Positions 12,092-17,113 of a stretch of 18,748 bases of DNA are shown here, one piece after another. Source of the stretch: Nitrospirae bacterium GWB2_47_37 (lineage in GTDB: Bacteria; Nitrospirota; Thermodesulfovibrionia; Thermodesulfovibrionales; Dissulfurispiraceae); NCBI GenBank assembly GCA_001803635.1, contig MHDU01000011.1, forward strand, positions 1 to 18,748. Reading direction: 5' to 3'. A program made the translations under genes and the position numbers. The notes under the pieces were generated by a model, which did no database searches, was not told the origin of the DNA, and was given only the letters and a program-made list of their open reading frames with translations. Every line of letters begins with the position of its first letter. Position 1 is the first letter of the stretch.

Positions 12092-14302
12092 TTGATGGAA
12101 AAAGAACTTGTTTTAGGCATCGATTATGGGGGCAAATACACAGGCCTTGGGGTGGTTGACCGCAGGAACAATCAGGTGTTGTATGCGAGGACCATAAAAA
12201 TGCGGGATGATGTTGCAGACATCCTTAAAGGACGCAGGGAACAGAGAGGTATCAGAAGAACTCAGCAGACAAGGAAGAAAAGACTGCGGGAGCTTAAAAA
12301 ATATCTAAATAGTATAGGATATGATAATTCTACCGAACTATTTAAATCTATTTATAGCCTCGCCCATAAGAGGGGCTATGACTATGCCGATATGCCAACA
12401 CCGGAAGAAATAGAGGAAATGGATGAGAAGGAAAAAAAAGAATGGAAAGATACGCAGAGAAATTCAAGGTACAGGAAAGAGGTTTTGGCAGATGTCCGCA
12501 AGGTAATGTCCAATGGTGGAGCTTCGGATGAACAGATAAAGAGGGTAGAAAGTATTTTCAATAAGCAGTATCGGCCTAAGAGATTTAATAACAGGATTTT
12601 GACCAAGTGCAAGGTCTGCGGAAAAAATACGCCATTAAGAAGAAATGTGAGGGAGTTGCTTCTTGAAAATATAGTTCGCTTCCTGCCGTTAGAAAGCGAA
12701 CTAAAAGAAACTCTTAAGCGAACAATTCTTGAAGGACAGCAAGGAAATATCAATAAACTATTCAGGAAATTGAAATTTAACCAGAAAGACTGGCCGGGCA
12801 AAAATCTTACGGACATAGCAAAGAACAAACTGCCGGGCAGACTGCCTTTTTGCAAGGAACATTTTGCAGAGAATGAGAAGTTTACCACTATAGAGAAATC
12901 AACTTTCAGGCTTGCGCCTTCTTTAAAGACAAAGATAGAAAATGTCCTGACTGTGATTAAAGACGAAGTAATGCCTAACTTTGCTCTCGATAGGGTAGTA
13001 ATGGAATCTAACAATTTCGATATAGCTGCAAAAACGAAGGGCAAAAAGAGGTTGGCAAAGGAGGAATACAGCAAGGGGCATAAGGAAAATAGAGAAACTC
13101 TTATGGAATCCCTTTTAAGGGAGACTGATGGAAGATGTGTTTATTGCGGTAAGACTATAACTTTAGCCGATGCAAATAAAGACCATATATATCCTAAGAA
13201 AGCAGGAGGCAGCAATATCTTTGCTAACCTTGTGGCTTGCTGCAGGAGTTGCAATGAAAATAAAGGGGGGCGGACTCCATCGGAAAGCGGCATTATGCCT
13301 AATCCAGAGGTCGTTGCAACGATTAAAAACGATTTAAAGAAAAAAATCCTCGATGATGCAAGAAGCATAAAGCAGTTAGATTTCAACAAATACATGTCTC
13401 ATGCCTCGATTGGCTGGAGGCATATGAGGGACAGGCTGAAAGAGCTAACCGGAAACGATAAATTGCCTGTAGAGCGGCTGAGCGGTATTGTTACAGCATA
13501 CTTTAGAAGGTGGTGGGGATTTAAGAAGGAAAGGGCTAACGATAAGCATCACGCGCTTGATGCTGTTATTCTTGCTTCAAGGAAAGATTATACGGATGAG
13601 GGGCTGGTGGCTATGACGCTTAAGCCTGCAAATTCGGATGGACGGGAGTTCGACCCTGAAAAGCATATCAAAGAATCGGAAGAGTTTAAGAGAAACAAGG
13701 GCAGCAGAGGGTCTGCCCTCTACGACAAAAACCCGTTGTCCATTAAGAATGGCAAAATTGCTCGAAGATATATGGTTACGGAGATTGAAAGAGGGAAGGA
13801 AGATGCTGTTATTTCTGAGGAATGGCGTGAAAAGCTGAAAGAAGCATTTGACCGCTTCGGGGTCAGCAATGGAAAATGTTTAACTGATTTACAGACTAAG
13901 GAAGTTGGGTTATATGGTCAGAAAAATCCTATGAGCCTTAAATGCGCTGTCAGGGGCGCAGGCAAAGGGCAGATTGTGCTGATAGGCAACAATGCATTTA
14001 AGACGAATGTTCATAATGTCGGCGTGGCGGTTTATCTCGACGAAAAGGGCAAGAAGCGGGCATGCGAACTTAAAAACCAGAGACTGGCAAAACACTTTGT
14101 AGAGCCACAGGATGAGATTAAAGGAAAGATATTATTTACCTTGAGAAAAGGGGACACAGTTAAGGCGGAAGATGGAAATATTTACAGGATACTTGAACTT
14201 GGCGAAAGGCCTGTTGTAGACATAAAGTGGGTACCAACATCTGATGGCAAGAAAAAGAGAGTAAAGACAGCTATACACGCAACAAAGCTCACAAAGCTCT
14301 AA
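12092..14302 (+). CDS. cas9: Compact Cas9 (736 aa), type II-D / Cas9d-like RNA-guided endonuclease
   Basis: Ruv[17 protein letters not shown] (Asp codon 12122-12124). Arg-rich bridge helix [25 protein letters not shown]. CxxC...CxxH zinc finger (CKVCG, FCKEH). Ruv[20 protein letters not shown]...[10 protein letters not shown]...[14 protein letters not shown] (DH at 13181-13186). Ruv[17 protein letters not shown] (13541-13579). The likely true start is ATG 12095, with the TTG at 12092 in the track. An adjacent array and cas1/2/4 support the call. Confidence 0.9.
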
Positions 14303-14304
14303 CT

Positions 14305-14449
14305 GAAAATTTTTTTAATGTCCTAACCCACAATGAAGGTGTCATTATCGACTGTAGTTTTAGTTTGGCTTAGGCTGGACAAACCCAAGCGTACATTCCT
14401 TCATCATATAGGCGTTTTACAATTAAGGCTCTTTTTGATTTTCGCAAAC
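14305..14449 (-). ncRNA. tracrRNA candidate (model 1): anti-repeat at 14449-14417 followed by about 110 nt of hairpin scaffold running toward the cas9 stop
   Basis: Plus strand 14417-14434 reads TTACAATTAAGGCTCTTT, the reverse complement of repeat segment AAAGAGCCTTAACTGTAA with 17/18 matches. Weaker inverted similarity continues to 14449. The one difference is a G-U wobble only for minus-strand RNAs. Hairpins at 14368-14390 and 14330-14348 also gain G-U pairs only on the minus strand. The ends and the strand are inferred, and no clear promoter or terminator was found. Confidence 0.5.
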
Positions 14450-14538
14450 CCCCTGGGGTTTATTTCAAAAGATGGCTTTTAGAAAATTATTGAAAATTTT
14501 CTCTGAAAACTTCTTGAAAATACTAAGCTATAAGGACG

Positions 14539-15081: not shown

Positions 15082-16275
15082 ATGCAAAGCAATACTTTTA
15101 AAATTTCACGCATCCATCCTGAATACGTGCCTAAAGAAAAATTGCCTCTTGCCCAATTCAATCTTTTTACAAACGAAGCGGAGAGCATTCCCTTATTGAT
15201 CGACAAAGATGTTGACGACGAGATATTTATCGATGAAGGGATTTCTCTGATAAAAAGCGGCGATTCATCGCAGATAGTGTTATCGGGGTTCGGCATTTTT
15301 TTAAGCAAAAAGAGCGAGCGTCTTATTGTAAAGAAAAACACTAAAGTTGTTTATGAGTTTCCCTTTTTCAGGCTGAACGAAGTCATCATGGCTTCCCGCG
15401 GCATATCGCTGTCGTCGGATCTTATAGAGGAATTGTGCGAGAGGGGTATAAGACTGAATTTTCTGAACAACAACGGCAAGCCGTACGCAATGCTTTCTTC
15501 TCCGATGCTCTCCGCAACCGTCATATCAAGAAGAGAGCAGATTATTGCCTTTACCGATACGCGCGGTCTTCAATTCTCAAAAGCTATTGTGGAGGGCAAA
15601 ATCAGAAATCAAGAAAGACTTTTGAGATATTTCGGCAAATATATTAAAACTGTTGACAGCGCCAGGTTTGACAGAATAGAGGAGATAACAGATGTCATTA
15701 GGAAGATGAGCAGGCAGGTGGAAGGTATTCACGGGCAGAGCATTGAAGATGCAAGAGGCAGACTGATGGCAATTGAAGGCGCTTCAGGTAGGCTATACTG
15801 GGACGGCGTTAAGGAGATAATCGGAAATAGAATAGAGTTTTTCGGGCGGGAAACGCGGGGAGCCATTGATGCCGTAAACTCCCTGCTGAATTACGGCTAT
15901 GGGATTTTATATTCCCACGTCTGGGGCGCCGTTATAAACGCCGGGCTTGAGCCGTTTGCGGGGTTTCTTCATGTGGACAGGCCCGGAAAGCCGTCTCTTG
16001 TTTTGGATTTGGTCGAAGAGTTTCGTCAACCTATTATCGATAGGATTGTAATCGCCCATATTAATCTTGGAGAATCAATCGAAATTAGAAATGGCCTGCT
16101 TGAAGCTGAGACCAGAAAGCTGATAGGGAACAAAATTATTGAAAGGCTGGAGAGTCAGGAAACACTTGACGGCAAAAAATATAAAATTAGGTCGATAATC
16201 CAGATGCAGGCCAGAAATTTAGCGGCCTTTCTGAACGGCAAAAGAGAATACAAAACGTTCAGATTTAAGTGGTAA
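15082..16275 (+). CDS. cas1: CRISPR-associated endonuclease Cas1
   Basis: Canonical C-terminal Cas1 motifs EGASGRLYW, AIDAVNSLLNYGYGILY, GFLHVDRPGKPSLVLDLVEEFR. RBS GGAGG at 15072-15076 favours ATG 15082, although the track starts at GTG 15076. Confidence 0.9.
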   Translation: MQSNTFKISRIHPEYVPKEKLPLAQFNLFTNEAESIPLLIDKDVDDEIFIDEGISLIKSGDSSQIVLSGFGIFLSKKSERLIVKKNTKVVYEFPFFRLNEVIMASRGISLSSDLIEELCERGIRLNFLNNNGKPYAMLSSPMLSATVISRREQIIAFTDTRGLQFSKAIVEGKIRNQERLLRYFGKYIKTVDSARFDRIEEITDVIRKMSRQVEGIHGQSIEDARGRLMAIEGASGRLYWDGVKEIIGNRIEFFGRETRGAIDAVNSLLNYGYGILYSHVWGAVINAGLEPFAGFLHVDRPGKPSLVLDLVEEFRQPIIDRIVIAHINLGESIEIRNGLLEAETRKLIGNKIIERLESQETLDGKKYKIRSIIQMQARNLAAFLNGKREYKTFRFKW

Positions 16276-16278
16276 TTG

Positions 16279-16560
16279 ATGGAAGAACATACAGTCTATA
16301 TTTTTTACGATATAGAAGATGACGGCATACGCAATAAGATTGCGGAGAAGTGTAAAGACTATGGGCTCGAAAGAATACAGTTCAGCGGCTTTTCCGGCAT
16401 TTTAAATAGAAACAAGCGGGAAGAACTATTTCTAAGGCTCATTTCTTTAATTGGCGGCAAATCAGGCAAAATTCTTATGCTTCCCTTATGTGAAAGGGAT
16501 ACGAAGGTAAGAAGGGAGTTTATACAGGAAGGACAAGATGATTCAACTGAGGGTCGGTGA
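16279..16560 (+). CDS. cas2: CRISPR-associated endoribonuclease Cas2
   Basis: About 93 aa. The N-terminal beta strand VYIFYDIEDD carries the conserved Asp, and the ferredoxin-like length is right. It starts 4 nt after the cas1 stop (TTG 16276 or ATG 16279). Confidence 0.8.
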   Translation: MEEHTVYIFYDIEDDGIRNKIAEKCKDYGLERIQFSGFSGILNRNKREELFLRLISLIGGKSGKILMLPLCERDTKVRREFIQEGQDDSTEGR

Positions 16561-17113
16561 TCTCAAGCAGTTCGTATATTGTCCAAGAGTCGTGTTCTAC
16601 AATTATGTGATGCCTGTCGAGAAAGTTCCAACCTTCAAGATGGAGCATGGGAAGATAGCAGAGGATAAAATAGACAGGCTTGAGCACAGAAGAAAACTTA
16701 AAAAGTACGGCTTGTCCGGCGGGGAAAGGGAATTCCACTTGAATTTATATTCTCCGAAATATGAGTTATCAGGCAAGATTGATCTGCTTATCAATACTGT
16801 CGGTTCTTATTATCCGGTTGACTTTAAATATACCACCTCGCAGCCGCATAAAAATCATATCTATCAACTTTTGGGGTATGCCCTAATACTTGAAGACATA
16901 TATAAATGCAAAGTCAATAGGGGATTTGTATATATAATTCCCAAAGAGGATGCAATTTCTTTTGACTTAACGGATGATTTGAAGGGCAAAGCAGAAATTT
17001 TGCTTGATGAGATCAGAGATATGATAGCATTGCAGCAAATGCCTGCCCCTGCAAACTCCAGAAATAAATGTGACGACTGCGAATATAGGAATTTCTGCGG
17101 AGATATTTTTTGA
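16538..17113 (+). CDS. cas4: CRISPR-associated exonuclease Cas4 (RecB-like nuclease with a 4-Cys cluster)
   Basis: N-terminal Cys (FVYCPRVVFY), the nuclease motifs GKIDLL and YPVDFKYT, the QxxxY-like IYQLLGYALIL, and a C-terminal CDDCEYRNFC. It overlaps cas2 by 23 nt. Confidence 0.85.
   Translation: MIQLRVGDLKQFVYCPRVVFYNYVMPVEKVPTFKMEHGKIAEDKIDRLEHRRKLKKYGLSGGEREFHLNLYSPKYELSGKIDLLINTVGSYYPVDFKYTTSQPHKNHIYQLLGYALILEDIYKCKVNRGFVYIIPKEDAISFDLTDDLKGKAEILLDEIRDMIALQQMPAPANSRNKCDDCEYRNFCGDIF

Follow-up and report, generated by a model that had tools for sequence, protein, structure and literature searches.

The 18,748-nucleotide stretch of Nitrospirae DNA that we analysed (the window) almost certainly carries a complete, chromosomal NbaCas9-1 type II-D CRISPR-Cas locus, hosted by a groundwater Nitrospirae bacterium. 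Its 735-aa effector is NbaCas9-1, a previously described protein and not a new one: activity tests, a use in protein engineering and a solved structure are already on record. We compared the effector with NCBIfam family models, PDB sequences, NCBI protein records and PADLOC 2023 profiles. The window protein was exactly identical to the NCBI records OGW20377.1 and OGW25741.1 (Nitrospirae bacterium GWB2_47_37 and GWA2_46_11, respectively), and PDB chain 9k32_A differed from it solely by the substitutions D10A and H364A. NbaCas9-1 is entered in Supplementary Table 1 of Kannan et al. 2025 (PMC13180657) from contig MHDT01000042.1, where it is marked as active with an NGG PAM and its sgRNA scaffold is given. 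Genome editing in human cells by NbaCas9-1 was reported in the same work, in which OrufIscB also received its REC domain as a graft, a step towards NovaIscB (Kannan et al., 2025). Protein, repeat, tracrRNA and NGG PAM are all the same in the window and in the published system, with no difference in effector or guide. Cas9d enzymes are of interest because they are the smallest Cas9s, stand between IscB and Cas9 and can be packed into a single AAV; the present result mainly shows that a II-D locus can be recognised from raw sequence.

The family models gave a clear class assignment. The effector scored 514.1 bits (E = 1e-153) against the NCBIfam Cas9d model NF049971, above its cut-off of 375, while it stayed below the cut-offs of both the NCBIfam IscB model (94.7 bits, cut-off 175) and the canonical Cas9 model TIGR01865 (88.6 bits, cut-off 100), the latter matching residues 317-721 only. 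The first-pass annotation had regarded the protein as a II-D-like effector whose class might not be new and had proposed such a profile comparison; both the Cas9d score and the adaptation genes bear its reading out, since cas1-cas2-cas4 is the common adaptation module of II-D loci in the 2025 CRISPR classification (PMC12669027). An alternative is a transposon nuclease of the IscB/OMEGA kind, with an omega RNA as its guide, and not a CRISPR effector; IscB shares with NbaCas9-1 the RuvC-bridge helix-HNH core, the small size and the dependence on a large RNA scaffold. Weak likeness to IscB was indeed found in the IscB model score, in matches to PDB IscB chains (E 1e-8 to 1e-11), in the presence of an RRXRR domain and in the resemblance of the tracrRNA scaffold to the 5' part of omega RNA (PMC12339737). 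However, the IscB score lies far under the cut-off, the protein lacks the N-terminal PLMP domain and starts at RuvC-I, and a zinc-finger REC insertion is present. Furthermore, the gene is not transposon-borne but adjoins a CRISPR array, a separate anti-repeat tracrRNA and cas1-cas2-cas4. With this locus content and the Cas9d model score, the IscB/OMEGA reading is refuted.

The presence of cas4, a classical marker of type II-B, raises the alternative that a shortened Cas9 is the effector of a type II-B (or II-C/II-C2) locus. As in II-B systems such as those of Francisella and Legionella, the adaptation module includes cas4, and the window Cas1 and Cas4 matched type II profiles best (Cas1_II and Cas4_II of PADLOC). 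In contrast, II-B Cas9s are about twice as long and have a full REC lobe, whereas the window effector lies above the Cas9d cut-off and fails the general Cas9 model. The closest PDB chains were all Cas9d, the PADLOC 2023 set returned generic Cas9 models only, at about 64 bits or less, and the cas1-cas2-cas4 module is assigned to II-D too (PMC12669027). Taken with these scores, a shortened II-B or II-C effector has virtually no probability left, and we treat the locus as type II-D. The coordinates of its features are collected in Table 1.

Table 1. Features of the NbaCas9-1 locus (positions in the window).
Feature	Position	Strand	Basis
cas9d (NbaCas9-1)	12095..14302	+	735 aa from ATG; Cas9d 514 bits; PDB 9k32_A; OGW20377.1
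tracrRNA, 132 nt	14303..14434	-	published NbaCas9-1 scaffold, fold, conservation
tracrRNA-to-first-repeat region	14435..14538		tracrRNA-proximal half conserved in L001/L002/L003/L004/L007
CRISPR array: two identical 36-nt repeats, one 35-nt spacer	14539..14645	-	repeat search; published sgRNA orientation
Lineage-specific non-coding DNA, 349 nt, array to cas1 promoter	14646..14994		no ORF or Rfam match
Probable decayed repeat copy overlapping cas1 promoter-like pair	14995..15036	+	69% identity to repeat
cas1, 397 aa	15082..16275	+	Pfam Cas_Cas1 228 bits; TIGR00287 248 bits; PADLOC Cas1_II 277 bits
cas2, 93 aa	16279..16560	+	Pfam CRISPR_Cas2 55.6 bits; TIGR01573 47 bits
cas4, 191 aa	16538..17113	+	TIGR00372 125 bits; best PADLOC model Cas4_II 137 bits

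The cas9d open reading frame (12092-14302, plus strand) opens at a TTG at 12092, which gives 736 aa; the ATG at 12095 gives the 735 aa of the NCBI record and is also the start in the published table (PMC13180657). The domain order is RuvC-I, bridge helix, small REC with a zinc finger, RuvC-II, HNH, RuvC-III and WED/PI. RuvC-I contributes D10 within GIDYG, RuvC-II E304 within VVMESNNFD, HNH the pair D363-H364 together with N387, and RuvC-III H485, H486 and D489 within DKHHALD. The bridge helix (about residues 45-72) has 13 Arg/Lys among its 28 residues. C172/C175/C253/H256 make up the zinc finger of REC and C348/C351/C383/C386 the zinc site of HNH; zinc ribbons have been described for Cas9d (PMC9755519, PMC13180657). 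In an alignment with nine Cas9d relatives these catalytic and zinc-binding residues and the named motifs were invariant. Three RuvC segments, an HNH domain and an Arg-rich bridge helix within 736 aa had been noticed from the raw DNA, and all are present; the catalytic residues singled out there (the D of GIDYG, the DH of HNH and the H/D of DKHHALD) align throughout, and the distance from bridge helix to RuvC-II, put at about 230 aa, came to about 225 aa of REC region.

NsCas9d, also called NbaCas9-2 (Nitrospirae bacterium RBG_13_39_12; PMC12339737; PDB 9LGI), is 67% identical to NbaCas9-1 and shares its domain order, its catalytic residues (D10, and H387 corresponding to H364), the anti-repeat sequence and the tracrRNA core, with an NRG/NGG PAM. 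It differs in being 762 aa long and in having insertions both in REC and in the N-terminal region, and on its contig (recovered as L003/L009) mobile-element-like genes follow the array, with no cas1-cas2-cas4 seen. Cas9d-MG34-1 (PMC9755519, PMC11706934; PDB 8ZQ9/9AUF) is similarly close, its solved 747-aa chains scoring about 1047 bits against the window protein, and a homologue of that same length (P0011, locus L004) is 66% identical, with a tracrRNA that immediately follows cas9d on the other strand. For MG34-1, an sgRNA that serves as a scaffold and makes a kissing-loop contact has been published (PMC9755519, PMC11706934), and by inspection a GUCC/GGAC segment pair in the window tracrRNA matches this contact. 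The MG34-1 repeat differs in its 3' half, and the window tracrRNA has a different variable hairpin.

The first-pass annotation had expected novelty most of all in the guide RNA, and here it was not upheld. The published NbaCas9-1 sgRNA scaffold mapped to the window with 0 mismatches, at 14303-14434 and at both repeats, all on the minus strand. The tracrRNA (14434→14303) begins with the 18-nt anti-repeat AAAGAGCCTTAATTGTAA, continues into a structured scaffold and ends immediately past the cas9d stop codon. The fold of the sgRNA had a z-score of -7.0, and relatives conserve the tracrRNA and show two covarying pairs in it; an Rfam search of 11500-15500 at E ≤ 1 gave no match, including none to a tracrRNA family. 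A search of genome contigs retrieved 15 loci with an alignment as query and none with a single protein. The order cas9d, minus-strand tracrRNA, array, cas1, cas2, cas4 recurs in L001, L002, L005, L007, L010, L011, L012 and L014/L027, and the tracrRNA/array layout is also common to NbaCas9-2/NsCas9d and the 66%-identical 747-aa relative. Because the published scaffold maps without mismatch and the same order is found in relatives, the guide-RNA layout is the published II-D design. The effector sits in a characterised clade with an identical tracrRNA layout, represented by NbaCas9-1 itself (PMC13180657, PDB 9K32), which the annotation had named as speaking against novelty. Within the interval between tracrRNA and first repeat, the conserved half holds a hairpin (AAACCCC..GGGGTTT, about 14456-14475), and we infer that the promoter of the tracrRNA lies in this interval, together with the array's leader side.

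The array consists of repeats at 14539-14574 and 14610-14645 flanking a spacer at 14575-14609. The crRNA functions in the minus-strand sense, TTACAGTTAAGGCTCTTTGAAAATGATGATTGAAAC, an orientation taken from the published active sgRNA. Repeat-embedded promoters of the type II-C kind were rejected by inspection: the 3' end of the minus-strand repeat has no -10-like element, and in the sole promoter-like match that uses a repeat the -10 falls outside it. With one spacer only, no match of the 22-nt cores of the window spacer or the L005 spacer to viral contigs, and a related MAG (L019) in which most of cas9d is lost, the locus could be taken for a decaying relic with no remaining immunity. Against this, all four genes are intact, the catalytic residues are conserved, and NbaCas9-1 was active in published assays (PMC13180657). 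Furthermore, the L005 contig, 99.7% identical to the window, has a different spacer, which suggests either spacer turnover or the collapse of a longer array by metagenome assembly. A relic is therefore unlikely, though it keeps more credit than any of the other alternatives, and an intact locus is the reading we retain.

The accounts of NbaCas9-1 that we consulted describe neither the adaptation genes around it nor the trailer of the array, and they do not mention the 349-nt segment. As the earlier annotation had stated, cas1, cas2 and cas4 are all intact downstream, and cas2 and cas4 overlap, by 23 nt. The cas1 frame (15076-16275) opens at a GTG at 15076, but translation probably starts from the ATG at 15082, which is preceded by GGAGG; similarly, the cas2 frame (16276-16560) opens at a TTG at 16276, with the likely start at the ATG at 16279. 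The cas1 product is 75-93% identical to Cas1 proteins adjoining other Cas9d genes and is distant from the II-A/II-C Cas1 model TIGR03639 (86 bits, cut-off 120). Cas4 has the Fe-S cysteines C15/C178/C181/C187 and the D-x-K and Q-x3-Y motifs. Judged by their sequences, the three genes are strong family matches and not chance open reading frames, and the module is also found in 8 related loci.

Between array and cas1 lies the 349-nt segment, in which neither an ORF of at least 60 aa nor an Rfam match was found, and whose fold had a z-score of -3.7. It is absent from 88%-identical relatives, which have a DUF5618 gene in its place. A tblastn test for descent from that gene gave no meaningful match; for a mobile-element origin there was no phage match and one marginal 60-nt plasmid match, and metagenome contigs contained no exact 32-nt match to the segment. 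The degenerate third repeat copy beyond it, 349 nt from the array, could by inspection base-pair with 17 of the 18 anti-repeat positions, and might be read as part of a non-textbook guide-RNA arrangement, such as one with plus-strand crRNAs or with another tracrRNA-like element at 14995-15030. However, the published active sgRNA is exactly the minus-strand repeat plus the 14434→14303 tracrRNA, and the position and strand of the tracrRNA are the same in all close relatives. The third copy also sits between the elements of a promoter-like pair upstream of cas1 (TTGTAA-N17-TATGAT, 15008-15036), conserved as TTGYAA-N17-TATRNT in L010, L011, L012 and L014. L012 and L014 keep the hexamers but have diverged in the repeat-like spacer that separates them, and in L010 and L011, which keep repeat-like sequence at this site, the arrays decay towards cas1 into the position of the third copy. 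A new guide arrangement is accordingly very improbable, and the third copy is probably a decayed terminal repeat. It is also conceivable, but a long shot, that this decayed repeat is a site at which tracrRNA, Cas9d or a minus-strand transcript starting there links adaptation-gene or pre-crRNA expression to the amount of effector, the 349-nt segment then forming a structured leader at the 5' end of the pre-crRNA; the bases flanking the repeat do not form an NGG PAM, and in L012 and L014 the hexamers alone are retained, which likewise argues against such a role.

As published work and sequence identity show, the 735-aa Cas9d works with a guide in which a minus-strand repeat is joined to the 132-nt tracrRNA of the same strand, and it recognises the NGG PAM with which NbaCas9-1 was marked active in the published screen. 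The mechanism of close homologues has been described (PMC12339737, PMC11706934, PMC9755519). By analogy with the structures of the 66-67%-identical NsCas9d and Cas9d-MG34-1, the large folded tracrRNA scaffold may replace much of the missing REC lobe; HNH (H364) would cleave 3 nt from the PAM on the target strand, and RuvC (D10/E304/H485 or H486/D489) would cleave the non-target strand at a greater distance, so that the ends are staggered. What is known of CRISPR systems in general, together with the relatives, leads us to infer a minus-strand array promoter and the leader/trailer polarity: minus-strand transcription of the pre-crRNA would start on the cas1 side, the tracrRNA would pair with the first 18 nt of each repeat, and new spacers would be acquired and trimmed by Cas1-Cas2 with Cas4. 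The cas1-proximal end of the array would then be the old (trailer) end, its last, decayed repeat overlapping the cas1 promoter. A gasdermin gene neighbours the NbaCas9-1 locus.

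We aligned the Cas9 encoded in the window with eight relatives, ranging from 88% to 31% identity, and scored it against curated family models. All of the effector motifs named in the first-pass annotation were found, and each was invariant: the RuvC residues D10, E304, H485/H486 and D489, and the HNH residues D363-H364 and N387, were retained in every sequence, as were a four-cysteine zinc site and the REC zinc finger C172/C175/C253/H256. The protein passed the curated NCBIfam Cas9d model NF049971 with 514 bits (cut-off 375) and passed neither the IscB model (94.7 bits, cut-off 175) nor the general Cas9 model (88.6 bits, cut-off 100) of NCBIfam, confirming its earlier placement in type II-D. 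An ATG at 12095, one codon after the TTG, gives a 735-aa form, which is the version in the NCBI record and in the published listing.

Features of the II-D locus in the window
Feature	Coordinates	Strand	Description
cas9d	12092-14302	+	ORF, 736 aa from TTG at 12092
tracrRNA	14303-14434	-	identical to the tracrRNA part of the published NbaCas9-1 scaffold
CRISPR array	14539-14645		a single 35-nt spacer (14575-14609) between two identical repeats of 36 nt
Non-coding segment	14646-14994		349 nt, lineage-specific, 51% GC
cas1	15076-16275		ORF; strong Pfam and NCBIfam match; likely start ATG 15082, preceded by GGAGG
cas2	16276-16560		ORF; strong Pfam and NCBIfam match; likely start ATG 16279
cas4	16538-17113		strong Pfam and NCBIfam match

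The best PDB match to the window Cas9d was 9k32_A, a 736-aa chain in which D10→A and H364→A are the sole differences over the aligned positions; 9k32_A is thus a catalytically dead form of the window protein. The next matches, 8W2S, 9LGI (NsCas9d) and 8ZQ9/9AUF (747-aa chain), are all Cas9d structures. The exact 735-aa sequence is deposited as OGW20377.1/OGW25741.1/HAK87992.1, from Nitrospirae bacterium GWB2_47_37 and GWA2_46_11. It is the protein named NbaCas9-1 by Kannan et al. (2025), whose Supplementary Table 1 gives contig MHDT01000042.1, an NGG PAM, a mark of activity and an sgRNA scaffold, and whose main text reports editing of human cells; furthermore, the Nba-1 REC domain was grafted onto OrufIscB on the route to NovaIscB (PMC13180657). 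The window Cas9d is therefore an already known, characterised protein, and the finding is not new. The first-pass annotation had allowed that the protein class might be known; in fact the protein itself has been characterised, within a characterised clade whose known guide-RNA layout is identical to that of the window.

Novelty had instead been expected in the guide RNA. In the published NbaCas9-1 scaffold, a G and the minus-strand form of the repeat are joined through a GAAA linker to a tracrRNA of 132 nt (PMC13180657). The tracrRNA part of this scaffold matched the window with zero mismatches, and the repeat part matched the minus strand of each of the two array repeats. From this match, the tracrRNA begins at 14434 with an 18-nt anti-repeat and terminates immediately past the stop codon of cas9d. 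Folding of the trimmed sgRNA gave -52.9 kcal/mol, far below shuffled controls (z = -7.0), and the tracrRNA was conserved, with two covarying pairs, in five contigs carrying related loci (L001, L002, L003, L004 and L007). Thus, the scaffold identity and the conservation in relatives show that the guide-RNA layout is standard for the clade, and the idea of an unusual layout has to be given up. Within the sgRNA, the hairpin loop UGUCCA is complementary to the 3' segment AGGACA. The predicted contact, read from the sequence, pairs GUCC in the loop with GGAC in the 3' tail and would fit the kissing-loop or pseudoknot interaction known from sgRNAs of Cas9d (PMC11706934; PMC12339737). We also observed an extra hairpin of ~30 nt (GCCAGCAT..ATGCTGAC) just past the anti-repeat in the tracrRNA of L001 (about 3420-3450) and L002, both of which are 88%-identical relatives. 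The window tracrRNA is without this hairpin, so this portion of the scaffold is dispensable or variable.

For NbaCas9-1 itself, published work shows an NGG PAM, activity in a screen and editing of human cells guided by a scaffold of minus-strand repeat plus tracrRNA (PMC13180657), and the steps of cleavage and scaffold binding are predicted from structures of 66-67%-identical homologues. By analogy with these, the folded tracrRNA would anchor the small protein domains, HNH would cleave 3 nt from the PAM on the target strand, and RuvC would cleave near position 6-7 on the non-target strand, giving a 5' overhang of about 3 nt, as with NsCas9d. New spacers would be acquired by Cas1-Cas2 with the help of Cas4, as expected from general knowledge of these proteins.

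The array was compared with that of L005, a contig from another, independent groundwater assembly that is 99.7% identical to the window over 14.8 kb. Between the same two repeats that flank the window spacer, L005 carries a different, 37-nt spacer (12473-12508), and a further contig, L006, breaks off inside this L005 spacer. This difference reflects either strain-level spacer variation or turnover, or a longer array collapsed by assembly. A search of viral contigs for exact 22-nt matches to either spacer returned none.

The segment between the array and cas1 contained no ORF of at least 60 aa and no Rfam match; searches of phages likewise gave no match, those of metagenome contigs none that was exact over 32 nt, and those of plasmids a single marginal one of 60 nt. 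Its predicted structure was no more than moderately better than shuffles (z = -3.7). A minus-strand DUF5618 gene occupies this place between array and cas1 in the 88%-identical L001, L002 and L007. Beyond the segment lies a third, degenerate repeat copy (14995-15030; 69% identity to the array repeat), set in a promoter-like pair (TTGTAA-N17-TATGAT, 15008-15036). The pair, as TTGYAA-N17-TATRNT, precedes cas1 by the same distance (~45 nt) in the related loci L010, L011, L012 and L014. In the window, L010 and L011, the 17 nt between the hexamers are a degenerate version of the stretch of the repeat that pairs with the tracrRNA; in L012 and L014 they have diverged. Because the arrays of L010, with 10 repeats, and L011, with 29, become progressively more degenerate in the direction of cas1, we read the third copy as probably the array's last repeat in decayed form, which overlaps the cas1 promoter; the trailer end of the array would then lie on the cas1 side. 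In the proposed transcription map, the array and the tracrRNA would be transcribed on the minus strand, with a 5' end near 15020-15030.

Intact cas1, cas2 and cas4 follow, as described in the first-pass annotation. Each has strong family matches, and cas2 and cas4 overlap by 23 nt; Cas4 retains its four Fe-S cysteines and nuclease motifs. The best PADLOC models were Cas1_II (277 bits) and Cas4_II (137 bits), and the II-A/II-C-type Cas1 model gave only 86 bits. These PADLOC and NCBIfam profile comparisons are consistent with the 2025 classification, in which II-D loci share cas1, cas2 and cas4 and have monophyletic Cas1 proteins (PMC12669027). Residues 1-63 of Cas1 (15082-15270) form an N-terminal extension of ~60 aa outside every Cas1 profile, and relatives retain the full length (397-399 aa). 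The order cas9d–tracrRNA(−)–array–cas1–cas2–cas4 recurs in L001, L002, L005, L007, L010, L011, L012 and L014/L027. The DNA recovered for L003/L009, which encode NbaCas9-2 (NsCas9d), and for a 47%-identical Desulfobacterales clade showed no adaptation genes. Two further loci were observed. L020 (5095-11436; Nitrospirota MAG218) encodes a 1006-aa effector only 25% identical to the window Cas9d beside a Cas1 that is 78% identical; across II-D size classes, conservation is far stronger in the adaptation module than in the effector. L019 (4086-7450; Nitrospirae bacterium NC_groundwater_1560), with a short cas9d remnant (79-aa ORF) beside cas1, cas2 and cas4, looks like a decaying II-D locus.

The II-D locus of the window is chromosomal, with rpmE (ribosomal protein L31), a DUF1385 gene, prfA, rlmH, a TPR/LapB-like gene and a PIN_5 gene upstream, and an M28 peptidase gene and a PNPOx-like gene downstream on the minus strand. 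The PIN_5 'RNA ligase partner' gene (11348-12058), with a Pfam score of 201 bits, stops 36 nt short of the ATG of cas9d. L005 and L006 carry it too; since a ParA-like gene takes its place in relatives, it is probably an unrelated neighbour. Farther upstream, a bacterial gasdermin gene was observed at 4346-5152 (PADLOC bGSDM, 263 bits), within 3752-6875. Next to it are an unknown ORF of 183 aa, a calcineurin-like phosphoesterase of 355 aa (Metallophos, 27 bits) and a Peptidase_C92-like protein of 191 aa, whose score of 27.6 bits lies at the cut-off; no adjoining ORF gave a match to caspase-like or subtilase families.
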